Origin: a virus
IMG/VR virus record: IMGVR_UViG_3300037069_000805
Coordinates: 32,001 to 96,000 of that record
Direction: 5' to 3' (one strand)
Length of the DNA: 64,000 nucleotides
A model generated the notes under the pieces. The model did no database searches. It was not told the origin of the DNA and worked only from the letters and a program-made list of their open reading frames with translations. The translations under genes and the position numbers were made by a program. The stretch's first letter is position 1, and each line of letters begins with the position of its first letter. This document shows positions 24,602 through 55,890 of the stretch, piece after piece.

Positions 24602-26413
24602 TTATTTACCTGTCATTAAATCTTCCATTTCAGTAGAAAATTCAGCAGGTGATAATTTTTCAGCTTTAGCGTTTCCTTTTCTCATATCTATAGTACCATC
24701 TTCATTATATCTAATTTGAGTACCTTTTAAGTTTTCATTTCCAGAATATCTACCTGTAGCCGTAACCCAATCACCAAATTTCTGAACTGCATTTTTATAA
24801 ACTTGATTTATTTCATACGCTCTTTTGAATTCTGGTTTTGCAATTTCATTTAATGTTCTTCCAATTGCAACTTTATGAACTGGATTACCATCTTTGTCAA
24901 CTACTAATGCTCTATGAGCCATTACACTTTGTTCTTTATTATTTTCAAATTTATAATTGTTATAATTAACAGGTGAATCATATCCAATATATTGAACTTT
25001 TTCACCATCTCCTAGTGTAATTTTTTCACCAGTTTTTATATCAATCATTGGTCTAAGACCAGCTTTAGTATCTAAAGTAAGTTGTTGATCTCTATCTGCT
25101 GGAGCTTTACCTGATAATTCTCCCATAAATAATTGATCTTCTCCTGTTGTATCAGGTCTTAATATATCATTACCTATAGTTAATTTATCCATATATTTTT
25201 TCATATATTCACTAGCAGCAGCTGCAGTTTTTGGATCATTTAAATCAGCATTAGATGGTAATTTATGAGAACTTTTTAATTTATTAACTGCTACTTCATA
25301 AGCTCTTTGAGATAATTTATCATCAAATATATCTTTATAAGTATACTTATTAGGATTTTCACCTGGTTTATATGGAGTATTTCTACCTTGTAATCCAGTA
25401 TGAGAATTAGCTAATGCATAAGAAAATCCAACTTTACTTTTACCTATTTGACTAACATCAACATCATTTATTCTTCCTGTTAAAGTATGAGTACTATCTG
25501 GATCAAATATACCAGATGGTTCTGCTTTATCTTCTTTTTTCTTAGCATTTGGATCACCTATAAATTGTGCATTTTCTCCTCTGTTATCAACTACTCCAGT
25601 TTTTAACATTGAATTAACTCCATTTACTAATTGAGATTGAACATTTGCATCATTAGCACCTTCAAATTTTCTTGAATCACTCCATTCTTTTTCACCAAAT
25701 TGATTTTGTAACAGTCCTAATGCACTTTGTAAATTAGGTTTATTAGATGTTTCTATTCTTCTTCCAGAACGATCAACCATTATCATTCCACCAAATGGTC
25801 CTTGTGCAAAACTGTATCCATTAGCTCTCATTTCACCAGTAACTTGTTCTCCTAATAAATCATGAACACTTTTAAGTTTATCTAAAGTTTCAATTTTCTT
25901 AGGTGCTCCAAGTAAACCAATGTTTGATATATTATTTTGACTATCAAAGCCAGTATATTTATCTTTTGAACTAAAATCATTCCATGCATTTAATGCACGT
26001 TCCATTGACCAACCTTTTGTTTTAGTAGCATCTTCTAGAAAATCTTTACGATTTTCCATATATACTTTCTTAGCATTATTTATTTGTCCAATCCTTCCAG
26101 TTGGTGCAACTAAATTTTGATATTCTCTATTTAAAGCTATAGTTTTACCAACCATATCATTATTAAAACCATTTGTTGCTAAATCAGATGCTTGTTGATC
26201 TATTTTTGATTCAATATTATTTTTTAATTTAGCTGCTTCTTCCAAATGTACATCTAATGGATCTACTTTTGCAAGTCCACCAATAATTTCTTGTTGTTGT
26301 GCTAGTAATGCATCATGCTTTTGTCTTTTTAACATAGGAACAAAAGCTAATTCTTGCATGGTCTGAGGAGTATATGCTGAAGGTGAAATCTCTGTGTAAC
26401 GGTTAGTTGCCAT
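24602..26413 (-). CDS. putative virion cargo protein
   Basis: 603 aa, no Cys seen, located in the cargo cluster. Confidence 0.6.
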   Translation of the reverse strand: MATNRYTEISPSAYTPQTMQELAFVPMLKRQKHDALLAQQQEIIGGLAKVDPLDVHLEEAAKLKNNIESKIDQQASDLATNGFNNDMVGKTIALNREYQNLVAPTGRIGQINNAKKVYMENRKDFLEDATKTKGWSMERALNAWNDFSSKDKYTGFDSQNNISNIGLLGAPKKIETLDKLKSVHDLLGEQVTGEMRANGYSFAQGPFGGMIMVDRSGRRIETSNKPNLQSALGLLQNQFGEKEWSDSRKFEGANDANVQSQLVNGVNSMLKTGVVDNRGENAQFIGDPNAKKKEDKAEPSGIFDPDSTHTLTGRINDVDVSQIGKSKVGFSYALANSHTGLQGRNTPYKPGENPNKYTYKDIFDDKLSQRAYEVAVNKLKSSHKLPSNADLNDPKTAAAASEYMKKYMDKLTIGNDILRPDTTGEDQLFMGELSGKAPADRDQQLTLDTKAGLRPMIDIKTGEKITLGDGEKVQYIGYDSPVNYNNYKFENNKEQSVMAHRALVVDKDGNPVHKVAIGRTLNEIAKPEFKRAYEINQVYKNAVQKFGDWVTATGRYSGNENLKGTQIRYNEDGTIDMRKGNAKAEKLSPAEFSTEMEDLMTGK

Positions 26414-26966
26414 ATTCTATTTGTTTAAATATTGTTTTATTATTACGAGTACCATTTATGTTTTGTGATAATGTAACATAATTAATATTATTAATTCTTG
26501 CACATTCGGCAGCAGATGAGTAAATTTCTCCTGTTTCTGTGTTTATAATTTCTTTAGCCATTCCACTATTCTTTTTTAAATTTTCTTTATGAGAATTAGA
26601 ATGTTTTAATCCTTTATTCCAAGCTAATTGACCTTTATGACTAATTGATAATTTAAGACGTTGTTCTTTTGTAGCAATCCTACCAAAAGCTCCTTCTCCA
26701 CCTAATGAAATATTACAAAGAGTTCCTGTTTTATTACATTTTCTTCCGTAGTAATCTATTAAAATTATTTCTAATTCTTTAGCTTCTTCGATTGTAATAT
26801 TTTTTTTTAAAATATCAATTTCATAATTAGGATATTTTTTAATTGTTTTAGACCATATATTATTACGATGTCTTCTTTCAAAAGGTCTTTTTATATTTCC
26901 AATACCAATATAGAATACCTCACCGTTTGGTTTAATATGTCTATATATACAATAATTATTGTTCAT
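26403..26966 (-). CDS. GIY-YIG homing endonuclease with NUMOD3-type repeats
   Basis: CIYRH..VFYIGIG, LCNISLGGEG, KLSISHKG..AWNKG, C-terminal HTH-like segment. Confidence 0.85.
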   Translation of the reverse strand: MNNNYCIYRHIKPNGEVFYIGIGNIKRPFERRHRNNIWSKTIKKYPNYEIDILKKNITIEEAKELEIILIDYYGRKCNKTGTLCNISLGGEGAFGRIATKEQRLKLSISHKGQLAWNKGLKHSNSHKENLKKNSGMAKEIINTETGEIYSSAAECARINNINYVTLSQNINGTRNNKTIFKQIEYGN

Positions 26967-26968
26967 TA

Positions 26969-28666
26969 TTAATATCCTTTATTATTTTTACGTAAATAAC
27001 CTCCATACATATTACTTGTAATAGAAGTTCCTACAAATTTATTTGGATCACCAAAAGATGGTGTACTATTTTTTTCAGCTAGTACTTGTTCATATGTTTT
27101 TTTAACACCAGTTTTCTTATTTACCATATACTTTCCATCCCACGAATATCCTAAGGCTTCAGCAATTTGATTTTTTTCAACTTCTTCTTTACCAATAGCT
27201 CCTAAATCAGTACCTATACTACCAAGTAATTTAGATTTTTGAGTATCATAATTAGCTGTATTTCTATCATTAATATCTAATTCAGCATTAGATTGACTCA
27301 TATTAGCTTGATTAACTCCTAAATCAAATTGTTGTTTATATTGTTTTTGTGCATTATTTAATTCGTTTGCTTTTAGATATGCATCTGACATACCTTTAGT
27401 ATAATTAAGATTAGCTCCTAATATATTACTTCTTAAAGCTCCTTCTGAACCATTAGTAGCATTTGTAAGTGCATTAATAGTATTATCATTTTCATTAGAT
27501 ACTGTATTTTGTAAATTTCTTTCATCAACATATGAAGGATTATATGTATTAGATAATCTATCTAATCTTTCAGCTTTTGGTTTTTTTAATTGAGATAACT
27601 GAAATGCATTCATAGCTACTGGAGCATATTTTAAAAACTTACCACCATTTTTATCTAAATAATCACCAATACCTGAATTAGAATTAACTGGTAAAGTAGA
27701 TTTAACTAGTGAATTAGATGGTTGTAATAGTGATGTTGTAGGTTGTAAATTATTACTAACTAAACCTTGCTTTAAACCTGTTGTATCTATTGAAGATACT
27801 GGATTTCTTGCCGATGTAAAAGCATATTGTCCATTTGGAAAACCTAAATTACTAGAATCATATATTCCTTTAGGAAAAGTATCTTCTTCTAATGGACCTC
27901 CATATGCAAAATCATTACTAAATTGATTACTAGCTTTAAAAGCTTGTCTATTTGCTTCACGTTTAGCTTCTTTTTTAGCACTAATTCCAGTTATAAATCC
28001 ACTTGCTAATTTACCTACTTGACTACCAATCATTCCACCAATAGGACCACCAATAGCAGTTCCTGCCAATGTTGTACCTGTTTCAATTCCAGCACTTAAT
28101 GCACCATCATTATCTCCAGCTATAAGTGAATTTATTCCAGCCATAGCAGGTTGTATTGCAGCAGTATATCCACTACCTTCAGCACCTTCTGCATTATCTA
28201 AATCACCACCTAAAAACATTTGTTTTTGTTGTGGTTGTACAAATTGTTCCATACCTTCTGGTATATCTCCACTATCTTGATTAGAAACTTGTTGAGAATT
28301 AGCTTGCATAGATTGATTAATTTGTTCTGCTTCAGCTTGTCTTTTAGCTTTTTCAGCTTCTTGAGCTTGTGTTAATCTACCTAATAGAGTCTTTCTAGTT
28401 TCCATTGAAGGTTTATCATTCCTATCTTTAAATTTCTTATCTATTATTTTTGAAGCATCTGCATAAGTTTTACCTTTAACATAAGATGGTAAGTTCATAT
28501 CTTTAGCAGTATTTTCATCAATAGATAATCTATTTGAATAAATATAATTACCAATCTTGGATTCACCTTGTTCTACTGTATTATTTTTACCCTGTGGTAT
28601 TCCGCCTCTTGGGTTTTCACTATGTGTTTCACCTACATTAAATTCCGTTAGTTTATTATTCTCCAT
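26969..28666 (-). CDS. putative virion cargo/internal protein
   Basis: GETHSENPRGG...VEQGE N-terminus, glycine-zipper segment AGTAIGGPIGGMIG, Gln/Asn-rich coils; likely start MENNKL at 28666. Confidence 0.65.
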   Translation of the reverse strand: MENNKLTEFNVGETHSENPRGGIPQGKNNTVEQGESKIGNYIYSNRLSIDENTAKDMNLPSYVKGKTYADASKIIDKKFKDRNDKPSMETRKTLLGRLTQAQEAEKAKRQAEAEQINQSMQANSQQVSNQDSGDIPEGMEQFVQPQQKQMFLGGDLDNAEGAEGSGYTAAIQPAMAGINSLIAGDNDGALSAGIETGTTLAGTAIGGPIGGMIGSQVGKLASGFITGISAKKEAKREANRQAFKASNQFSNDFAYGGPLEEDTFPKGIYDSSNLGFPNGQYAFTSARNPVSSIDTTGLKQGLVSNNLQPTTSLLQPSNSLVKSTLPVNSNSGIGDYLDKNGGKFLKYAPVAMNAFQLSQLKKPKAERLDRLSNTYNPSYVDERNLQNTVSNENDNTINALTNATNGSEGALRSNILGANLNYTKGMSDAYLKANELNNAQKQYKQQFDLGVNQANMSQSNAELDINDRNTANYDTQKSKLLGSIGTDLGAIGKEEVEKNQIAEALGYSWDGKYMVNKKTGVKKTYEQVLAEKNSTPSFGDPNKFVGTSITSNMYGGYLRKNNKGY

Positions 28667-29186
28667 AATATTTATAAGTTGTTTTATTATTCCTACTACC
28701 ATTCAACCAACGTGACATGTATTTAGGATTTAAGTTATTTTCTTCACAACATTCTGTTAGTGAATTATATATTTTATTTGTTAAGGTACAAATTACTTTT
28801 TTAGAATTATGATGTTTTTCTCCTTTAATTCCATACATAGGATTATTTTTACCAGTATTTCTAATTTTAGAATTAAGCAAGTACTCTTTAGTATATATTC
28901 TTGGTAAAATATTAGTTTCTACTAAAACACAATTTAATCCATTTTCAGATAATACATCATAATAATCTTGCCAATATCTTTCTCTAATATTTAGTTCTTC
29001 AAATTTACATTCTTCAATAAATTCTATGATATGATTTTCAAAACTATATTTATCAAAACTATTAAATAATCTAACTTGTTTATTATGACATTTATATTTA
29101 TAATAAGATATTCTTTTCTTGTAATTTCTTGTCTGCCCAATATATATTCTACCTTTTGGATTTGTTATTTTATATATTCCAATCAT
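28656..29186 (-). CDS. GIY-YIG homing endonuclease
   Basis: GIYKITNP..IYIGQT, ERYWQ, NGLNC, GKNNPMYG. Confidence 0.9.
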   Translation of the reverse strand: MIGIYKITNPKGRIYIGQTRNYKKRISYYKYKCHNKQVRLFNSFDKYSFENHIIEFIEECKFEELNIRERYWQDYYDVLSENGLNCVLVETNILPRIYTKEYLLNSKIRNTGKNNPMYGIKGEKHHNSKKVICTLTNKIYNSLTECCEENNLNPKYMSRWLNGSRNNKTTYKYYGE

Positions 29187-29198
29187 ATTTAATATTAT

Positions 29199-29226
29199 AA
29201 AAAAAAGGAGAGCGTTAACTCTCCTT
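29199..29226 (-). terminator. intrinsic terminator of the 98-aa moron gene
   Basis: Minus strand AAGGAGAG-TTAACG-CTCTCCTT followed by a T-run. Confidence 0.85.
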
Positions 29227-29234
29227 GATTGGTT

Positions 29235-29531
29235 TTACTTAAATGTTAAATTCTTAAACGTCTTTCCACTGTCGGTAACAATGTAGTAATAATTAGATTT
29301 TGTTAAACAAATCAATTTTTTACCTCCTTCTGTAGCGACAATACAATGAATATTTGGATTAATGTTTTCCAAAGTAAACATCTTATCGTCAGGCTTGTTG
29401 TAAAAGGCATTGTAAGCCGTTTCAAATTTTGAAGGTGAATTTTCTCTTTCAATAATTGAAAAAGATTCTCCTAATCCCTGATTATAGACCACGTTATCTT
29501 GGTCTATGCTAATCTCTGTTAATGTGTACAT
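29235..29531 (-). CDS. hypothetical protein (moron with own promoter and terminator)
   Basis: 98 aa, C-terminal YYIVTDSGKTFKNL; visibly more C/G-ending codons than its neighbours. Confidence 0.75.
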   Translation of the reverse strand: MYTLTEISIDQDNVVYNQGLGESFSIIERENSPSKFETAYNAFYNKPDDKMFTLENINPNIHCIVATEGGKKLICLTKSNYYYIVTDSGKTFKNLTFK

Positions 29532-29551
29532 AATTTGTGTGTATTTATATA

Positions 29552-29586
29552 TTGCCTACTCTTTAGCTTTTCGGCTTCCGCTATGA
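29552..29586 (-). ncRNA. candidate structured leader RNA (pseudoknot with E-loop-like motif)
   Basis: GC-rich island UCAUAGCGGAAGCCGAAAAGCUAAAGAGUAGGCAA in an AU-rich 5'UTR; UAGC/GCUA and GCC/GGC pairings are interleaved. Confidence 0.45.
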
Positions 29587-29603
29587 TTTTAAATATGTCA
29601 ATA

Positions 29604-29635
29604 CAAATATAAGGAATTTTTATTAGAATTCCAAA
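29604..29635 (-). promoter_or_regulatory. Bacteroidota housekeeping-type promoter
   Basis: TTTG-N20-TATATTTG matches the -33 TTTG / -7 TAnnTTTG consensus. Confidence 0.8.
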
Positions 29636-29666
29636 TTTTTAAATACATATTTTATAATATTTTTTA

Positions 29667-32600
29667 TTATGTAGTATAATAAATAGATGGTGAATAGAAA
29701 ATTAATTTATAGTTATTTTCATTTTGAAACTGAAGTTTCAATTTAATATATGGAGCACGAATTCTATTTCTATTTTGACGAGGAATCAACACATTCCAGT
29801 CACGAAATTTTCTTCTTGCATTTTCATTTCTTCCAACAACTATTGGAACCAGTCCACTATCTTGATAATCATTATAAGCTTGTATTTTATTTAAAGTTAT
29901 TTCAGGTTGATCTACATTATTTAATGTAACATCAGATTTAAAATTAATATTATCAAATACACAATCTAAATTTGGTTCTGGGTTAACATTAAATGTAATA
30001 TAAGAAGGAAATATTTCACCATAAAATGAATTATAATCTCCAGCATATTGTTTCCATATTTGAGATATATCAGGTGAAGTAGTAATAAAATTATCACCTT
30101 TACTCATATACATAGACGGAATATAATCATAGAAACTAATAAAGTTCTGCTTATTCTCATTATAAGATAATGTAAATGATTGATCATTTTGATGTAATGT
30201 TATAAATATATCATTATTAATATAATCAAAAGATACTACCACACCTTGTTTAATTAACGGATTATCTATTTTAAGCTCTTGTAAGGAACTATTATTATAA
30301 AAGTATGTATGCATACCTTTTGTATCAGATTGTCCTTCTATTTGTCCTCTAAATGAGTTAAATGATCTATTTAAAGCATCATAGTAATATATAGCAGATG
30401 ATGAACTTGCAATAGCCCATTTATTTATACTTCCAGATTCAGTAGTAATATAATTATAATCTTGTAATACTGAACCTAAACCTAATTCTAATGATAATCC
30501 ATCACTAGCTTGTGTTTGAACTCTTGGTAATATAGATATAAATGCAATACCTGTATCTTGAAATGAAAATATATTATCTTTGAAACTATATAATGAATTT
30601 ATTGGTCCATATTCACCTTTTAAATGTAATATATTATTTACTTGAATATCAGTCCAGCTATCTATAATCTCACCAGGAACTTTAATTTTAGTTGATATTA
30701 TAGTAGTGTCAAAATTATTTGTTTTTTTAAATTTATAATCAACATCTCTAGTTTTAATTAAATTAGATTGTTGAGAATAAACTGTATTATATTTTTGATA
30801 TTCATTATATTGTGGTTGAAATCTATTATCCCAAGGAGTAAGGCTTAAATCATTTCTGTTTTGTAAATCTATAGATGTTTCCAATCTTACAGATACTATT
30901 TCAGTATGTTGTTGTGAATTTTTACTATATACTTCAGTTTCGGTTTTAACTAATTTTGTAAACTGAAACTTTTGAACAAATGTATCTCCTGGATGTTTAC
31001 AGTAATAAATATTTGTATTTATTTCTTGGTATTCACCTATTTCAATATAATTAGTTCTTTTCTTAGATTCATAACTATTACCTTTGTATAAATTACCAAC
31101 ATATATTAATATATTAGGTATTTTAAATTCTCCAATAACAGCGATATCATCATCCATTCCTAATGATGCATGTATATCTTCAAGTTTAGTTCTATCTTCT
31201 GTTGCAAGTGAAGAATCACCTAATGCAAATGTAATATTTTTAGAACCAAAAGTATTTACTGAATATAAATATCTACCACCATCAGCAGTTAATTGTTCTA
31301 ATGAATTATAAAATACTAGTTCAGAATTATTTGCATATATAGTTCTACCTTGACCTTTTTCAACAAGTAATGGTGTACTATAAGTATCATATGTAGTTAT
31401 AATAGATGGATTAAATGTTCCCATATAACTTCTATACGTTTGCACAAATTCCATATTATCATCACCATGTGCTACTTCAAAAAATCCTTTATCAACTAAA
31501 TCCATCCAATTTCCTATAGTTTCTTGTAGATTTACTCCAACAGCTTTAACATCATATGGTGATATTGCACCTATAACTTTAGTTTCACTAATTACTTGTT
31601 TAGTTTCAATTTTTCTAAGTTGTCCCCAAAAATAATTATTATCATTTTTAGCTCCACCTATCACATTAAGTTGTACATTTGACATATTTTGAATTAAATC
31701 AAATGTTGCTTCTGGAGAATACATTTGCATAAGTTGATTAAACTGAAATGTTTCAGATAATCTATCATCTGCATTTGAAGTATTAAATACTTCTGTACCT
31801 GCACCATATGTAAATGGTGAAATTGGATTAGGTTTTAAATTTGGATGTATAGTAGGATCTTGACTATCAACTCTATCATATGTTGACATTCTATATTGAG
31901 GGCATAAATAATTATCATATCTACGCATTAATGATGGTAATTTATCTCCAGCATTTGCAAAATCTATTGCTTCAGGACTAAATGGTGCTGTATTAACATT
32001 TCCATTTTTATTATTAGAAATCATTCCATTAATTAATCCTTGACATATAATAGATCTATCTAACAGAGTTCTTTCACCTATAATTAATTTATATCCAACT
32101 GGTTTTAAAAATTCATCATAATTTCCATTATCATCTAAAAAATTAGATTGATCATTCAACCATATATAAAATTCTGCTTTTAATGTAATTTCTAAAGATG
32201 CAAACTTATCATTTAAATTTATTCCATCATCTGTAGCTACTATAAAATCAGCAATCCATTTAGGTAATGCATCAGCGCCATATTTATTATAAAATTTAAT
32301 ACCTAATCTATATAATTCATTATCTTTAAAAAACCTACCATTTATGTCTTCATTAGTAAATCCATTAATACCTACTTCACTTCTTACAATTTTATATTTT
32401 AAATACATACCCTCACCTCCTAAAATGGAAGAATTATATTGGTATTTATTTATCATATAATTTTTGTTTATAGATGAAAATTTTTCAGGAACTGTATACG
32501 TATTATATACAGTAATAGAAGGTTCGTTACTAATTGGATTACCAGATCCATCATCTATTAAAGAATTATATATTTCTGTAGTTAAAGCATTCATTGGAAA

Positions 32601-33710
32601 CGAATAAGCTCTTGTATCTAAATTAATTTCAAGATTCTTTTCTTTATAATTAGCTAAGAACATAATATTTTTCTTAGTATTTATATGTTTTGGTATAATT
32701 ATATCCGAACCTAAAAATAAAAATTCTTCTAAAGAAACTGTTTCTATAATATTACCATCATCATAATAAGTTACTTCTGTTAATCCAACTATATTTTTAT
32801 CTAATATAAGACTAACAGATGGTATTTGATTAAAAGACGTATATTTTATAGCATACAATCTAATATTAGTATAATCATTATCTAATACATCTATATTAAT
32901 AACAGGTAATGTTTTTACTATTTCATTAATATCTCCTCCACCTTCTATATTATTATCTAATGATATTAATTCTGATAATGGACTTATTTTTGTTTGAGAA
33001 CCATTTAACTTGTAAAGATTATAAGCATATTGAATCATTCCTGCAGTATGTATACCACCTGACAATATATCTATAATTTTAGGTTGTGTAAATGTATAAT
33101 CTCCAACTATATTTAATATATTAGAACTTACATCAATTAGTTCTTCTAAATCACCATTTAATATAGAATGTTCTAAATTTAAAAATCTCATTTGATTCTT
33201 ACCATCTACCCAATATATTTTATCAATAATATCATTTTCAAAATTATTAATACACTGAATTGGATTAGTTATATTAAATTGTAAATCTCTCATATATAAT
33301 AATGTTATATCATATGTAATATCATTTACTTTCCAGACACAATCAAATCCATTATTATCAGTTGTAAGTAAAATTAAACTATCTCTTGAAAATGTATGTC
33401 CTATAATTAATTGATCACCTGATGTTCTATATGTAGTACCACTTATAAGATATATATCATTTATTTCATTAGTTGTATAAATTAATTTTTTATTATTATA
33501 AAGTATTTTTTTATTAACACCATCAATTATTGGTGTTGGTACTGTTAAAATTAAACTATTACCTTTTTCATTAGTTACAGCTCCAGTACTTTGTGTATCT
33601 GTAGCAATTACTCTAATATTTCTAGCATTAAAATAAAATTTATTACTATAATTTGACTTGTTAATGTCTTGGACAAGACCTTCAAAACCTTGTTGTACAT
33701 TTTTATTCAT
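29667..33710 (-). CDS. tail stabilization / nozzle (muzzle) protein
   Basis: 1347 aa, beta-rich; YWVDGKNQMRFLN, GEIIDSW, RRKFRDW; crAss gene order after the tubular protein. Confidence 0.8.
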   Translation of the reverse strand: MNKNVQQGFEGLVQDINKSNYSNKFYFNARNIRVIATDTQSTGAVTNEKGNSLILTVPTPIIDGVNKKILYNNKKLIYTTNEINDIYLISGTTYRTSGDQLIIGHTFSRDSLILLTTDNNGFDCVWKVNDITYDITLLYMRDLQFNITNPIQCINNFENDIIDKIYWVDGKNQMRFLNLEHSILNGDLEELIDVSSNILNIVGDYTFTQPKIIDILSGGIHTAGMIQYAYNLYKLNGSQTKISPLSELISLDNNIEGGGDINEIVKTLPVINIDVLDNDYTNIRLYAIKYTSFNQIPSVSLILDKNIVGLTEVTYYDDGNIIETVSLEEFLFLGSDIIIPKHINTKKNIMFLANYKEKNLEINLDTRAYSFPMNALTTEIYNSLIDDGSGNPISNEPSITVYNTYTVPEKFSSINKNYMINKYQYNSSILGGEGMYLKYKIVRSEVGINGFTNEDINGRFFKDNELYRLGIKFYNKYGADALPKWIADFIVATDDGINLNDKFASLEITLKAEFYIWLNDQSNFLDDNGNYDEFLKPVGYKLIIGERTLLDRSIICQGLINGMISNNKNGNVNTAPFSPEAIDFANAGDKLPSLMRRYDNYLCPQYRMSTYDRVDSQDPTIHPNLKPNPISPFTYGAGTEVFNTSNADDRLSETFQFNQLMQMYSPEATFDLIQNMSNVQLNVIGGAKNDNNYFWGQLRKIETKQVISETKVIGAISPYDVKAVGVNLQETIGNWMDLVDKGFFEVAHGDDNMEFVQTYRSYMGTFNPSIITTYDTYSTPLLVEKGQGRTIYANNSELVFYNSLEQLTADGGRYLYSVNTFGSKNITFALGDSSLATEDRTKLEDIHASLGMDDDIAVIGEFKIPNILIYVGNLYKGNSYESKKRTNYIEIGEYQEINTNIYYCKHPGDTFVQKFQFTKLVKTETEVYSKNSQQHTEIVSVRLETSIDLQNRNDLSLTPWDNRFQPQYNEYQKYNTVYSQQSNLIKTRDVDYKFKKTNNFDTTIISTKIKVPGEIIDSWTDIQVNNILHLKGEYGPINSLYSFKDNIFSFQDTGIAFISILPRVQTQASDGLSLELGLGSVLQDYNYITTESGSINKWAIASSSSAIYYYDALNRSFNSFRGQIEGQSDTKGMHTYFYNNSSLQELKIDNPLIKQGVVVSFDYINNDIFITLHQNDQSFTLSYNENKQNFISFYDYIPSMYMSKGDNFITTSPDISQIWKQYAGDYNSFYGEIFPSYITFNVNPEPNLDCVFDNINFKSDVTLNNVDQPEITLNKIQAYNDYQDSGLVPIVVGRNENARRKFRDWNVLIPRQNRNRIRAPYIKLKLQFQNENNYKLIFYSPSIYYTT

Positions 33711-34453
33711 TATCTATGTTGTTTTATAATTTCTTTTTCTCCGAATTTTTTAAATCCATTTTTATGCGCTGAAGTATTTATAATTAATCTATTAATTCCA
33801 TTCATAAGTGTTTCCATTTTATCTACACTTGGCATTTGTAATGCTGTAAATGCAGAAGGCATATAAAAATATCTTTTTTGTTGTATATATTCAAATGCTT
33901 TATCAGTTATTTTACCCATTATCCACAATGGTTCTAAATATCTACTAAGTATATAATATTCCATACCAATCATAACTTTTTCATTATCTGGTATTAAAGG
34001 ATAACCTTCTTCATCTGTAGCAATTCCTTGATATGATAATTGTATACATCCATCACATATTGATGTAAAAATAATACCTTTTTGAATTTTATAAGTAAAT
34101 TCATTATTATTACTATAAATATTTGTATTTGTATTTTCTAAATCAGTAAATTGTGAAGGATCTAAATGAAATATATCTGATGCTTCTCTCATAGAAATAC
34201 TTGATATATTACCAGATGGACCAGTTATATATCTAACACCATTTAAATAAAGTAAATCACAAGGTAATTCTGCTTTATATGATGTTAAATCTAATACTAC
34301 TAATTTGTTTTCATAAGCTACAGGAGCACCTAATAATCGTAAAAATTCAAGAATATATTCAGCAGCTTCTTCATATGTTAATTCAGAGGCTAAAGGGTTC
34401 TTCATTATTTTCCACATCACTGAGCCAAGTGATTTATAATTTGTATTTGTCAT
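33710..34453 (-). CDS. tail tubular / ring protein
   Basis: KAELPCDL, YQGIATDEEGYPLIPD; directly upstream of the stabilization protein. Confidence 0.75.
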   Translation of the reverse strand: MTNTNYKSLGSVMWKIMKNPLASELTYEEAAEYILEFLRLLGAPVAYENKLVVLDLTSYKAELPCDLLYLNGVRYITGPSGNISSISMREASDIFHLDPSQFTDLENTNTNIYSNNNEFTYKIQKGIIFTSICDGCIQLSYQGIATDEEGYPLIPDNEKVMIGMEYYILSRYLEPLWIMGKITDKAFEYIQQKRYFYMPSAFTALQMPSVDKMETLMNGINRLIINTSAHKNGFKKFGEKEIIKQHR

Positions 34454-36648: not shown

Positions 36649-36675
36649 ATATTAATTTTTATAAAATTATTTATA

Positions 36676-36707
36676 CAAAGGTAATGAATATATTTGACAT
36701 ATCCTAA
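36676..36707 (-). promoter_or_regulatory. Bacteroidota-type promoter
   Basis: TTAG-N20-TACCTTTG (perfect -7, one mismatch at -33). Confidence 0.6.
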
Positions 36708-53317: not shown

Positions 53318-53398
53318 CAAATATAACACATTTTAAAAGGGAATCCAAATAAAATTTAAATTATTTCACTTTTTTCTCCTTTTAATAATAGCTAATTT
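53318..53398 (-). promoter_or_regulatory. promoter for scaffold/MCP with upstream AAATTAGCTATTAT box
   Basis: TTTG(53349-46)-N20-TATATTTG(53325-18); box at 53385-53398. Confidence 0.7.
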
Positions 53399-55791: not shown

Positions 55792-55809
55792 TATTTTTCT
55801 TTTAACTTG

Positions 55810-55890
55810 CTAATATAAACAATAAAGTAACTAATTCCAAATAAAAATGTATTTATTTTAGAAAAAGTTACTTTAAATAATAGCTAATTT
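55810..55890 (-). promoter_or_regulatory. promoter for portal with upstream AAATTAGCTATTAT box
   Basis: TTTG(55841-38)-N20-TATATTAG(55817-10); box at 55877-55890. Confidence 0.6.

Follow-up and report, generated by a model that had tools for sequence, protein, structure and literature searches.

A DUF805b leader and a small accessory gene probably inserted between resident expression signals of a crAss-like phage

In lambdoid and HK97-like phages, accessory genes situated amid conserved ones have been described as morons, and the classic kind arrives with a promoter and a terminator of its own. DUF805b, an RNA motif that was reportedly described in the 2017 survey of Weinberg et al., is held in Rfam as RF02914 (type Cis-reg, clan CL00115). 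It is widespread in Bacteroidota, a phylum with poorly understood translation initiation, which does not rely on Shine-Dalgarno pairing. A literature search for DUF805b or DUF805 as an RNA motif returned nothing relevant and no functional study. The promoters P070 and P075 of Cellulophaga phage phi14:2 (Steigviridae) have been mapped by primer extension and transcribed in vitro by the sigma-70 holoenzyme; both belong to the rifampicin-sensitive middle class that depends on the host RNA polymerase (RNAP) (bioRxiv 10.1101/2020.03.07.982082).

The present study concerns a 64,000-nt stretch of DNA (the window) from a 104,240-bp crAss-like phage record with a GC content of 25.3%, for which phi14:2 is the nearest named phage. 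An earlier note on the same DNA had described a self-contained unit made of a host promoter, a structured leader, a 98-aa ORF and a terminator of its own. Our analysis leads to a different arrangement, to which we assign a probability of roughly 70%: a foreign cassette of DUF805b leader and 98-aa gene was inserted between the lineage's own P070-type promoter and its own terminator hairpin, within the 5′ leader of the cargo/virion-RNAP middle operon. The locus is thus an acquired accessory gene with a known leader RNA, a borrowed promoter of a known type and a resident terminator, rather than a new kind of system.

Promoter and hairpin at the muzzle-cargo 1 junction

Every gene around the 98-aa ORF (29235-29531) lies on the minus strand. 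In transcription order, ring protein 1 (33710-34453; PF24228) comes first, and the muzzle protein gene (29667-33710; PF25731 and PF25729) is directly upstream of the ORF. Downstream of the hairpin discussed below, a 176-aa GIY-YIG homing endonuclease gene (28656-29186; PF01541, phrog_314) constitutes a separate insertion. It is followed by cargo protein 1 (26969-28702; PF25725), a second GIY-YIG endonuclease of 187 aa (26403-26966), and then the large cargo and virion-RNAP genes.

A Bacteroidota sigma-A-type middle promoter (29604-29640, minus strand) separates the muzzle gene from the ORF. It consists of an A-tract, a -33 TTTG box (29635-29632) and a -7 box TATATTTG (29611-29604), the two boxes being 20 nt apart, and this layout would place the transcript start near 29598. 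A strict pattern (TTTG, 19 to 21 nt, TAnnTTTG) scanned over the 64-kb window yielded two matches against 2.4 expected by chance, so a pattern match alone is not significant. Both matches are intergenic and run in the same direction as the genes, the second one preceding the capsid operon. The promoter recognized by the earlier note is indeed present at this place and conserved, as it aligns with the promoter of the ORF-less relatives L130-L134, which carry an A-tract, TTTG(G) and TATATTTG, and with that of phi14:2. In both position and sequence, it is the counterpart of phi14:2 P070. Like P070, it occupies the gap between muzzle (g071 in phi14:2) and cargo 1 (g070), shares the A-tract, TTG and TATATTTG, and serves a downstream operon that includes the virion RNAP. 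In contrast, phi14:2 has no hairpin and just 5 nt between the promoter and the g070 ATG, whereas in the window a 365-nt insert and a hairpin lie between promoter and operon.

Some additional features of the promoters were observed. The stretch separating the -33 box from the -7 box contains an inverted repeat with arms of 6 bp (GGAATT-N8-AATTCC, 29613-29632) that could be an operator; the second arm is absent in the closest promoter (L132), and the repeat may therefore be a chance occurrence. Further host-type promoters on the minus strand of the window are seen at 36656-36683, 53318-53349 and about 55800-55850. They comprise a P075 counterpart preceding the metallophosphatase gene, the strict match of the capsid operon, and a near-match in front of a 799-aa gene. 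An extended -33 block, TTTGGAAT, is common to several host-type promoters of the window.

Downstream of the ORF, an intrinsic-terminator-like hairpin (29197-29226, minus strand) comprises a stem-loop at 29226-29205 and a T8 run at 29204-29197, ending 10 nt before the endonuclease ATG. The stem has 9 bp and the loop 4 nt; the predicted folding energy is −12.4 kcal/mol (z = −4.5), and none of 200 shuffled sequences folded as well. In shape, it is a G+C-containing stem-loop with a U-run, as expected of an intrinsic terminator. The ORF-less relatives L129-L134 hold an orthologous hairpin, AAGGAGAAG...CTTCTCCTT with T7, about 30 nt downstream of the promoter, and there the ATG of cargo 1 or of an endonuclease comes next. 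Muzzle-cargo 1 gaps showing it include L133:3316-3464 and L130:3858-4000. The promoter is present and the hairpin absent in phi14:2 and L136.

Since ORF-less relatives carry the promoter and the hairpin at this junction as well, these comparisons of sequence show both elements to be resident in the phage backbone, not parts of the insert. Thus, the hairpin claimed as the unit's own terminator is real, but it belongs to the lineage, and the unit is not self-contained. This bears directly on the moron interpretation, in which the phage would have gained promoter, leader, ORF and terminator in one event and would express them outside its own programme. In favour of such a moron, the four elements adjoin one another and the ORF stands out in composition as foreign; however, the promoter matches the mapped phi14:2 P070, and both promoter and hairpin can be aligned in the ORF-less relatives. 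The distribution of the gene family, described below, also has to be weighed here.

The window promoter is the only recognizable one for the 22-kb cargo/virion-RNAP cluster. A relaxed pattern applied up to 1 kb upstream of the gene starts between 7,000 and 29,600 found no other promoter for it, in agreement with the earlier note. Consequently, the cluster would need read-through of the hairpin. The hairpin may then serve this lineage as an attenuator, perhaps a regulated one, or mark where a short RNA ends, and in either case govern the dosage of the genes for the virion RNA polymerase and cargo proteins; the insert would merely have landed upstream of it. Besides the absence of another recognizable promoter in the 22-kb cluster, the order of promoter, about 30 nt, hairpin with T-run, and gene, which is kept throughout L129-L134, speaks for such a role. 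On the other hand, phi14:2 and L136 manage with the promoter and no hairpin, and the hairpin might mainly end upstream late transcripts instead. We consider the attenuator interpretation a serious candidate at somewhat less than even odds. It is compatible with the insertion of a leader-gene cassette and does not exclude it. If the hairpin ends a short RNA, the RNA from promoter to hairpin could be roughly 65 nt long.

Gain and family of the 98-aa ORF

In phi14:2, the muzzle gene (g071) directly precedes cargo 1 (g070) with a gap of 77 nt and no 98-aa ORF. Eight viral contigs with a cargo 1 homologue were taken, and the muzzle-cargo 1 junction could be examined in seven. Muzzle and cargo 1 are adjacent in four of them, and a homologue of the 176-aa endonuclease lies between the two genes in another two (L129 and L133). 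The remaining junction (L132) has a different, 220-aa GIY-YIG endonuclease in exactly the slot taken by the 98-aa ORF insert. The 98-aa ORF itself was found at this junction in none of the seven metagenomic relatives, nor in phi14:2. The refuting outcome envisaged by the earlier note, that the ORF would prove to be a syntenic core structural gene, was therefore not encountered.

GIY-YIG homing endonucleases occupy three different positions across the relatives in the muzzle-cargo 1-cargo 2 region (window 28656-29186 and 26403-26966, L132:3241-3903, L129:3424-4008 and L133:3465-3992). The 187-aa endonuclease of the window (26403-26966) is missing in all seven relatives examined.

Alignment of the window with the ORF-less relatives runs from the muzzle stop codon to the end of the -7 box and resumes at the hairpin. 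These flank alignments delimit a putative foreign insert at 29232-29596 (minus strand; boundaries approximate), which would hold the DUF805b leader and the ORF, preceded by a short 5′ stretch and followed by a few nucleotides. The 365 nt of the insert stand in place of about 30 nt of backbone leader.

The composition of the ORF points in the same direction as the alignments. Its GC3 is 0.303 against 0.098 ± 0.038 for the genome, the highest value among 111 genes (z = 5.4), which bears out the excess of C/G-ending codons remarked on earlier. Such a value is typical of the homologue-carrying phages with 30 to 35% GC. The relatives are distant (40 to 58% protein identity), and synteny alone would therefore leave loss in the other lineages possible; it is the GC3 value that argues for gain rather than loss of the ORF. 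On this sequence evidence, the GC3 outlier together with the absence of the ORF from phi14:2 and seven relatives, the ORF is shown to be, as the earlier note had supposed, a foreign, horizontally acquired gene and not a syntenic core gene. DUF805b-led genes of other phages, tested for compositional outliers, showed no deviation, and hence the cassette is not generally a recent arrival.

Compared with phage morons, the 98-aa gene is likewise an extra gene between conserved neighbours, absent from relatives and deviant in composition. Unlike a classic moron, it found the promoter and terminator of the window already resident, and only the RNA leader came along.

The 98-aa protein (P0001) is acidic (pI 5.3) and predicted to be soluble with an alpha+beta fold, and it belongs to a family marked by MYTL[TR] at the start and YI[VM]T[DE]xGKTF near the end. 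An initial scan of viral contigs with the single protein gave no match. A protein search recovered seven homologues (P0002-P0008) with 51 to 60% identity and strongly conserved termini, among them WP_395073915.1 of a Flavobacterium sp., whose contig measures 172,863 bp. A further candidate, L005 (Acutalibacteraceae), was dropped for having only 33% identity across 46 residues. The wider family counts 882 cluster representatives, nearly all of them stand-alone proteins of 85 to 105 aa, and is uncharacterized. An AlphaFold2 model of the protein is confident (pLDDT 93.7, pTM 0.83) and has seven strands and one helix. The homologues, the large family and the confident model together indicate that the ORF is a real gene.

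The structure prediction suggested by the earlier note thus produced a confident model, but no solved structural relative. Foldseek against the PDB returned nothing at E ≤ 0.001, and a wide VIA-align search of the PDB gave a top Z of 4.6 (NAD kinase C-terminal domain), which is within noise. Structural matches in BFVD are exclusively uncharacterized small proteins from diverse phages, and neither Pfam nor PHROG gave a match. The C-terminal VTDSGKTF hairpin resembles an Asp-box (S-x-D-x-G-x-T-W), with protein-atlas feature scores of 0.90 to 0.91; this BNR/Asp-box lead gave no Pfam BNR match and no propeller by fold search. The protein is probably a soluble, non-structural accessory factor, and to assign it a role in host interaction or exclusion would be a guess.

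No conserved neighbour gene of the ORF family was found across the family loci. The idea that the family travels with homing endonucleases was rejected, as the pairing is limited to two crAss-like loci. A few local features of family loci may be recorded. In a second crAss-like phage (L004), a secreted-looking 97-aa ORF at L004:7652-7945 lies directly upstream of the homologue and contains a similar NYYYYNIIT...GK stretch; it may be a very distant paralogue. Upstream of another homologue, L006:3919-5925 holds 2 kb with no ORF of at least 60 aa and no Rfam match at gathering score. Transfer RNA genes directly precede family members in L143, L144, L145 and L148, the last having five.

The DUF805b leader RNA

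From the probable start near 29598 to the ATG at 29531, the leader measures about 67 nt, and the structured leader of about 70 nt described in the earlier note turns out to contain DUF805b. The cmscan match to RF02914, an H-type pseudoknot at 29553-29584 (minus strand), scored 47.1 bits against a gathering score of 35.6. P1 pairs 29582-29580 with 29567-29565, closing the GGAAGCCGAAAA loop, and the pseudoknot stem pairs 29575-29573 with 29556-29554, joining a loop NCC to the downstream GGN′. An A/C-rich, G-free spacer of 21 nt (29532-29552), conserved in the homologues, separates the pseudoknot from the ORF. The distance from the last paired base, C29554, to the AUG is 22 nt (the spacer plus A29553). 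Thus, the leader agrees with DUF805b in its score, the core GGAAGCCGAAAA ... AGAGUAGGC, P1 and pseudoknot, and a position about 20 nt upstream of the start codon. It departs from the naming association in that the 98-aa ORF has no Pfam match, and hence no DUF805 (PF05656) gene follows; here the RNA leads a horizontally moved phage gene. Membership in DUF805b says nothing on mechanism. Minimum-free-energy folding of the leader was uninformative (z = 0.15), as expected for a small pseudoknot. Weak Rfam matches (RatA, isrP and others) fell far below their cutoffs and were discarded.

A core-pattern scan of viral contigs detected DUF805b in at least 119 contigs, from which 117 distinct copies among the matches listed were analysed. 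The three P1 pairs are paired in 97 to 98% of these copies, the types CG, GC and AU each being frequent. The search pattern itself fixes two of the three pseudoknot pairs; the single pair left free to vary is paired in about 96% of the copies and takes all six standard types (GC, CG, GU, UA, AU and UG). In an alignment of 95 sequences, 98.2% of the cells are paired, a value reached by none of 500 shuffles, and 76 double changes were counted against 21.5 in shuffles, with support for both stems. The unpaired nucleotides GGAA, GAAAA and AGAGUA are invariant. The interval from the pattern-final GG to the ATG is 19 to 24 nt in 75 of 91 copies among the matches listed, the window having 23 by the same count. 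Complete phage genomes carry one copy, rarely two, and the window genome carries one.

The genes led by this RNA are diverse. Among the matches listed, DUF805b precedes more than 40 unrelated phage gene families, the 98-aa ORF superfamily (19 copies) and ParB-like proteins (15 copies) being among them. DNA methylase, HU-like and SSB-like proteins, DUF805 and many unknowns are also found. A DUF805 gene follows only 1 of the 117 copies among the matches listed (L120), and the association that gave the motif its name does not define the RNA in phages.

These features bear on the possibility that DUF805b is a riboswitch, in which a small ligand, by stabilizing the pseudoknot, would act as an on or off switch for translation of the 98-aa gene. 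It resembles the preQ1-I and SAM-II riboswitches in being small (about 32 nt), in its pseudoknot topology and in having loop nucleotides that do not vary. Its compact H-type fold, its one or two copies per phage genome and its Rfam type, Cis-reg, would all suit such a role. In contrast to those riboswitches, the start site of the window is not sequestered in the pseudoknot, since the AUG lies 19 to 25 nt beyond it, and the DUF805b-associated genes are functionally heterogeneous, with no common metabolic theme. Moreover, an alternative-pairing platform is not visible in the window leader. A riboswitch in this strict sense is therefore unlikely, though it deserves attention.

A hairpin of another kind was noticed in a family of 60-aa genes starting with MVTYFNKKDLV that stand behind DUF805b in L026, L028, L053, L063, L109 and L116. 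Their spacer folds into a hairpin (ACCAT...ATGGT) that covers the start codon, and it includes a short upstream ORF. Such an arrangement, which may be an expression platform, is absent from the window leader.

Does the leader travel with the ORF? At all four loci brought together by the protein search (the window, L003, L004 and L006), RF02914 scores above the gathering score, the three homologue loci reaching 47.1, 44.3 and 38.8 bits. The approximately 53 nt before the ATG are 85 to 96% identical among these loci, against about 71% for the coding sequence. At the sequence level, this shows that the DUF805b leader travels with the 98-aa gene. The travelling module proposed by the earlier note is therefore correct as far as leader and ORF are concerned, and incorrect for the promoter and terminator, which do not move with them. 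The association weakens in the wider family. Out of 34 viral loci sampled by the protein motif alone, 15 reach the gathering score for DUF805b; the other 19 lack the motif and keep the A/C-rich spacer and the MYTLR start. Conversely, no credible homologue of the 98-aa protein was found in five complete phage genomes that have DUF805b before other genes. Hence, the RNA seems to belong to this protein family only loosely.

Two further proposals of the earlier note can be judged from these distributions. The first is autoregulation, with the 98-aa protein binding its own leader. Leader and ORF do occur together in all four close homologues, and conservation is stronger in the leader than in the coding sequence. 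However, the RNA exists in genomes that lack the protein, more than half of the protein-selected family members (19 of 34) lack the motif, and the motif precedes many other families among the matches listed. Autoregulation is thus very improbable. The second is a type III-like pair of RNA antitoxin (the leader) and toxin (the 98-aa protein). As in ToxIN, an RNA element stands upstream of a small ORF inside a phage. Unlike ToxIN, the genome has a single RNA copy, the leader is free of tandem repeats, no terminator separates RNA and ORF, and searches of Pfam, PHROG and the PDB gave the protein no relative, whether ToxN-like or of another kind, that would mark it as an endoribonuclease-like toxin. 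With the RNA acting as a general leader of unrelated genes, we see hardly any chance for this proposal.

The family data also complete the case regarding a self-contained moron. At least five DUF805b-less family members have a TAnnTTTG box 28 to 40 nt upstream of the ATG, and the family is therefore sometimes linked to a promoter. Against this, a -7 box within 90 nt accompanies only 22 of 116 DUF805b copies among the matches listed. Family members in most other phages sit about 50 nt behind an upstream ORF, which leaves too little space for a promoter, and in most family loci DUF805b fills this gap. Taken with the resident promoter and hairpin, this makes joint acquisition of all four elements improbable, if less so than autoregulation. 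The occurrence of DUF805b in gaps of about 50 nt with few promoters suggests an action at the level of RNA or translation, independent of where transcripts begin.

Proposed expression of the inserted cassette and its meaning

For the preferred arrangement, a leader-gene cassette between resident signals, the following course of expression can be proposed. Host RNAP would start near 29598 at the P070-type promoter, making the 98-aa gene the first cistron of the middle operon. The transcript would then present the pseudoknot (29584-29553), the G-free 22-nt spacer and the ORF in this order. Placed at the 5′ edge of the ribosome-binding region, the pseudoknot may promote or tune initiation at the 98-aa ORF, possibly with a ligand or protein partner. 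The majority of transcripts would end at the resident hairpin, and the endonuclease gene and the 22-kb cluster would depend on read-through. As the 98-aa ORF lies upstream of the hairpin, its product should be made in excess over those of the endonuclease and cargo genes. We infer the start site, the termination efficiency and the translational role of the leader in this phage from its sequence and its relatives; the public sequencing runs with matching sequence are three soil-metagenome DNA runs, with no RNA run listed.

A riboswitch or protein-binding role of DUF805b fits the data as well as a role in translation initiation does. A broader idea would see in DUF805b a portable module with which Bacteroidota and their phages initiate translation independently of Shine-Dalgarno pairing, so that a carrier gene could be translated in any transcribed spot. 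We hold this idea tentatively and would sooner bet against it. If it is true, the insert is a natural example of it, with nothing but RNA and ORF transferred and the promoter supplied by the recipient.

The locus offers a concrete case of accessory-gene gain in a crAss-like phage, whereby a leader-ORF cassette probably entered an existing promoter-terminator frame, in contrast to the textbook moron that brings its own signals. The same junction also collects homing endonucleases. Furthermore, the analysis flags a large unannotated family of small proteins whose fold is confidently predicted and unmatched. For DUF805b, the unit provides a clean single-copy natural setting, with a promoter of a mapped type, a pseudoknot, a small ORF and a terminator. 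Finally, a conserved hairpin may stand in the path of expression for the entire cargo/virion-RNAP cluster.
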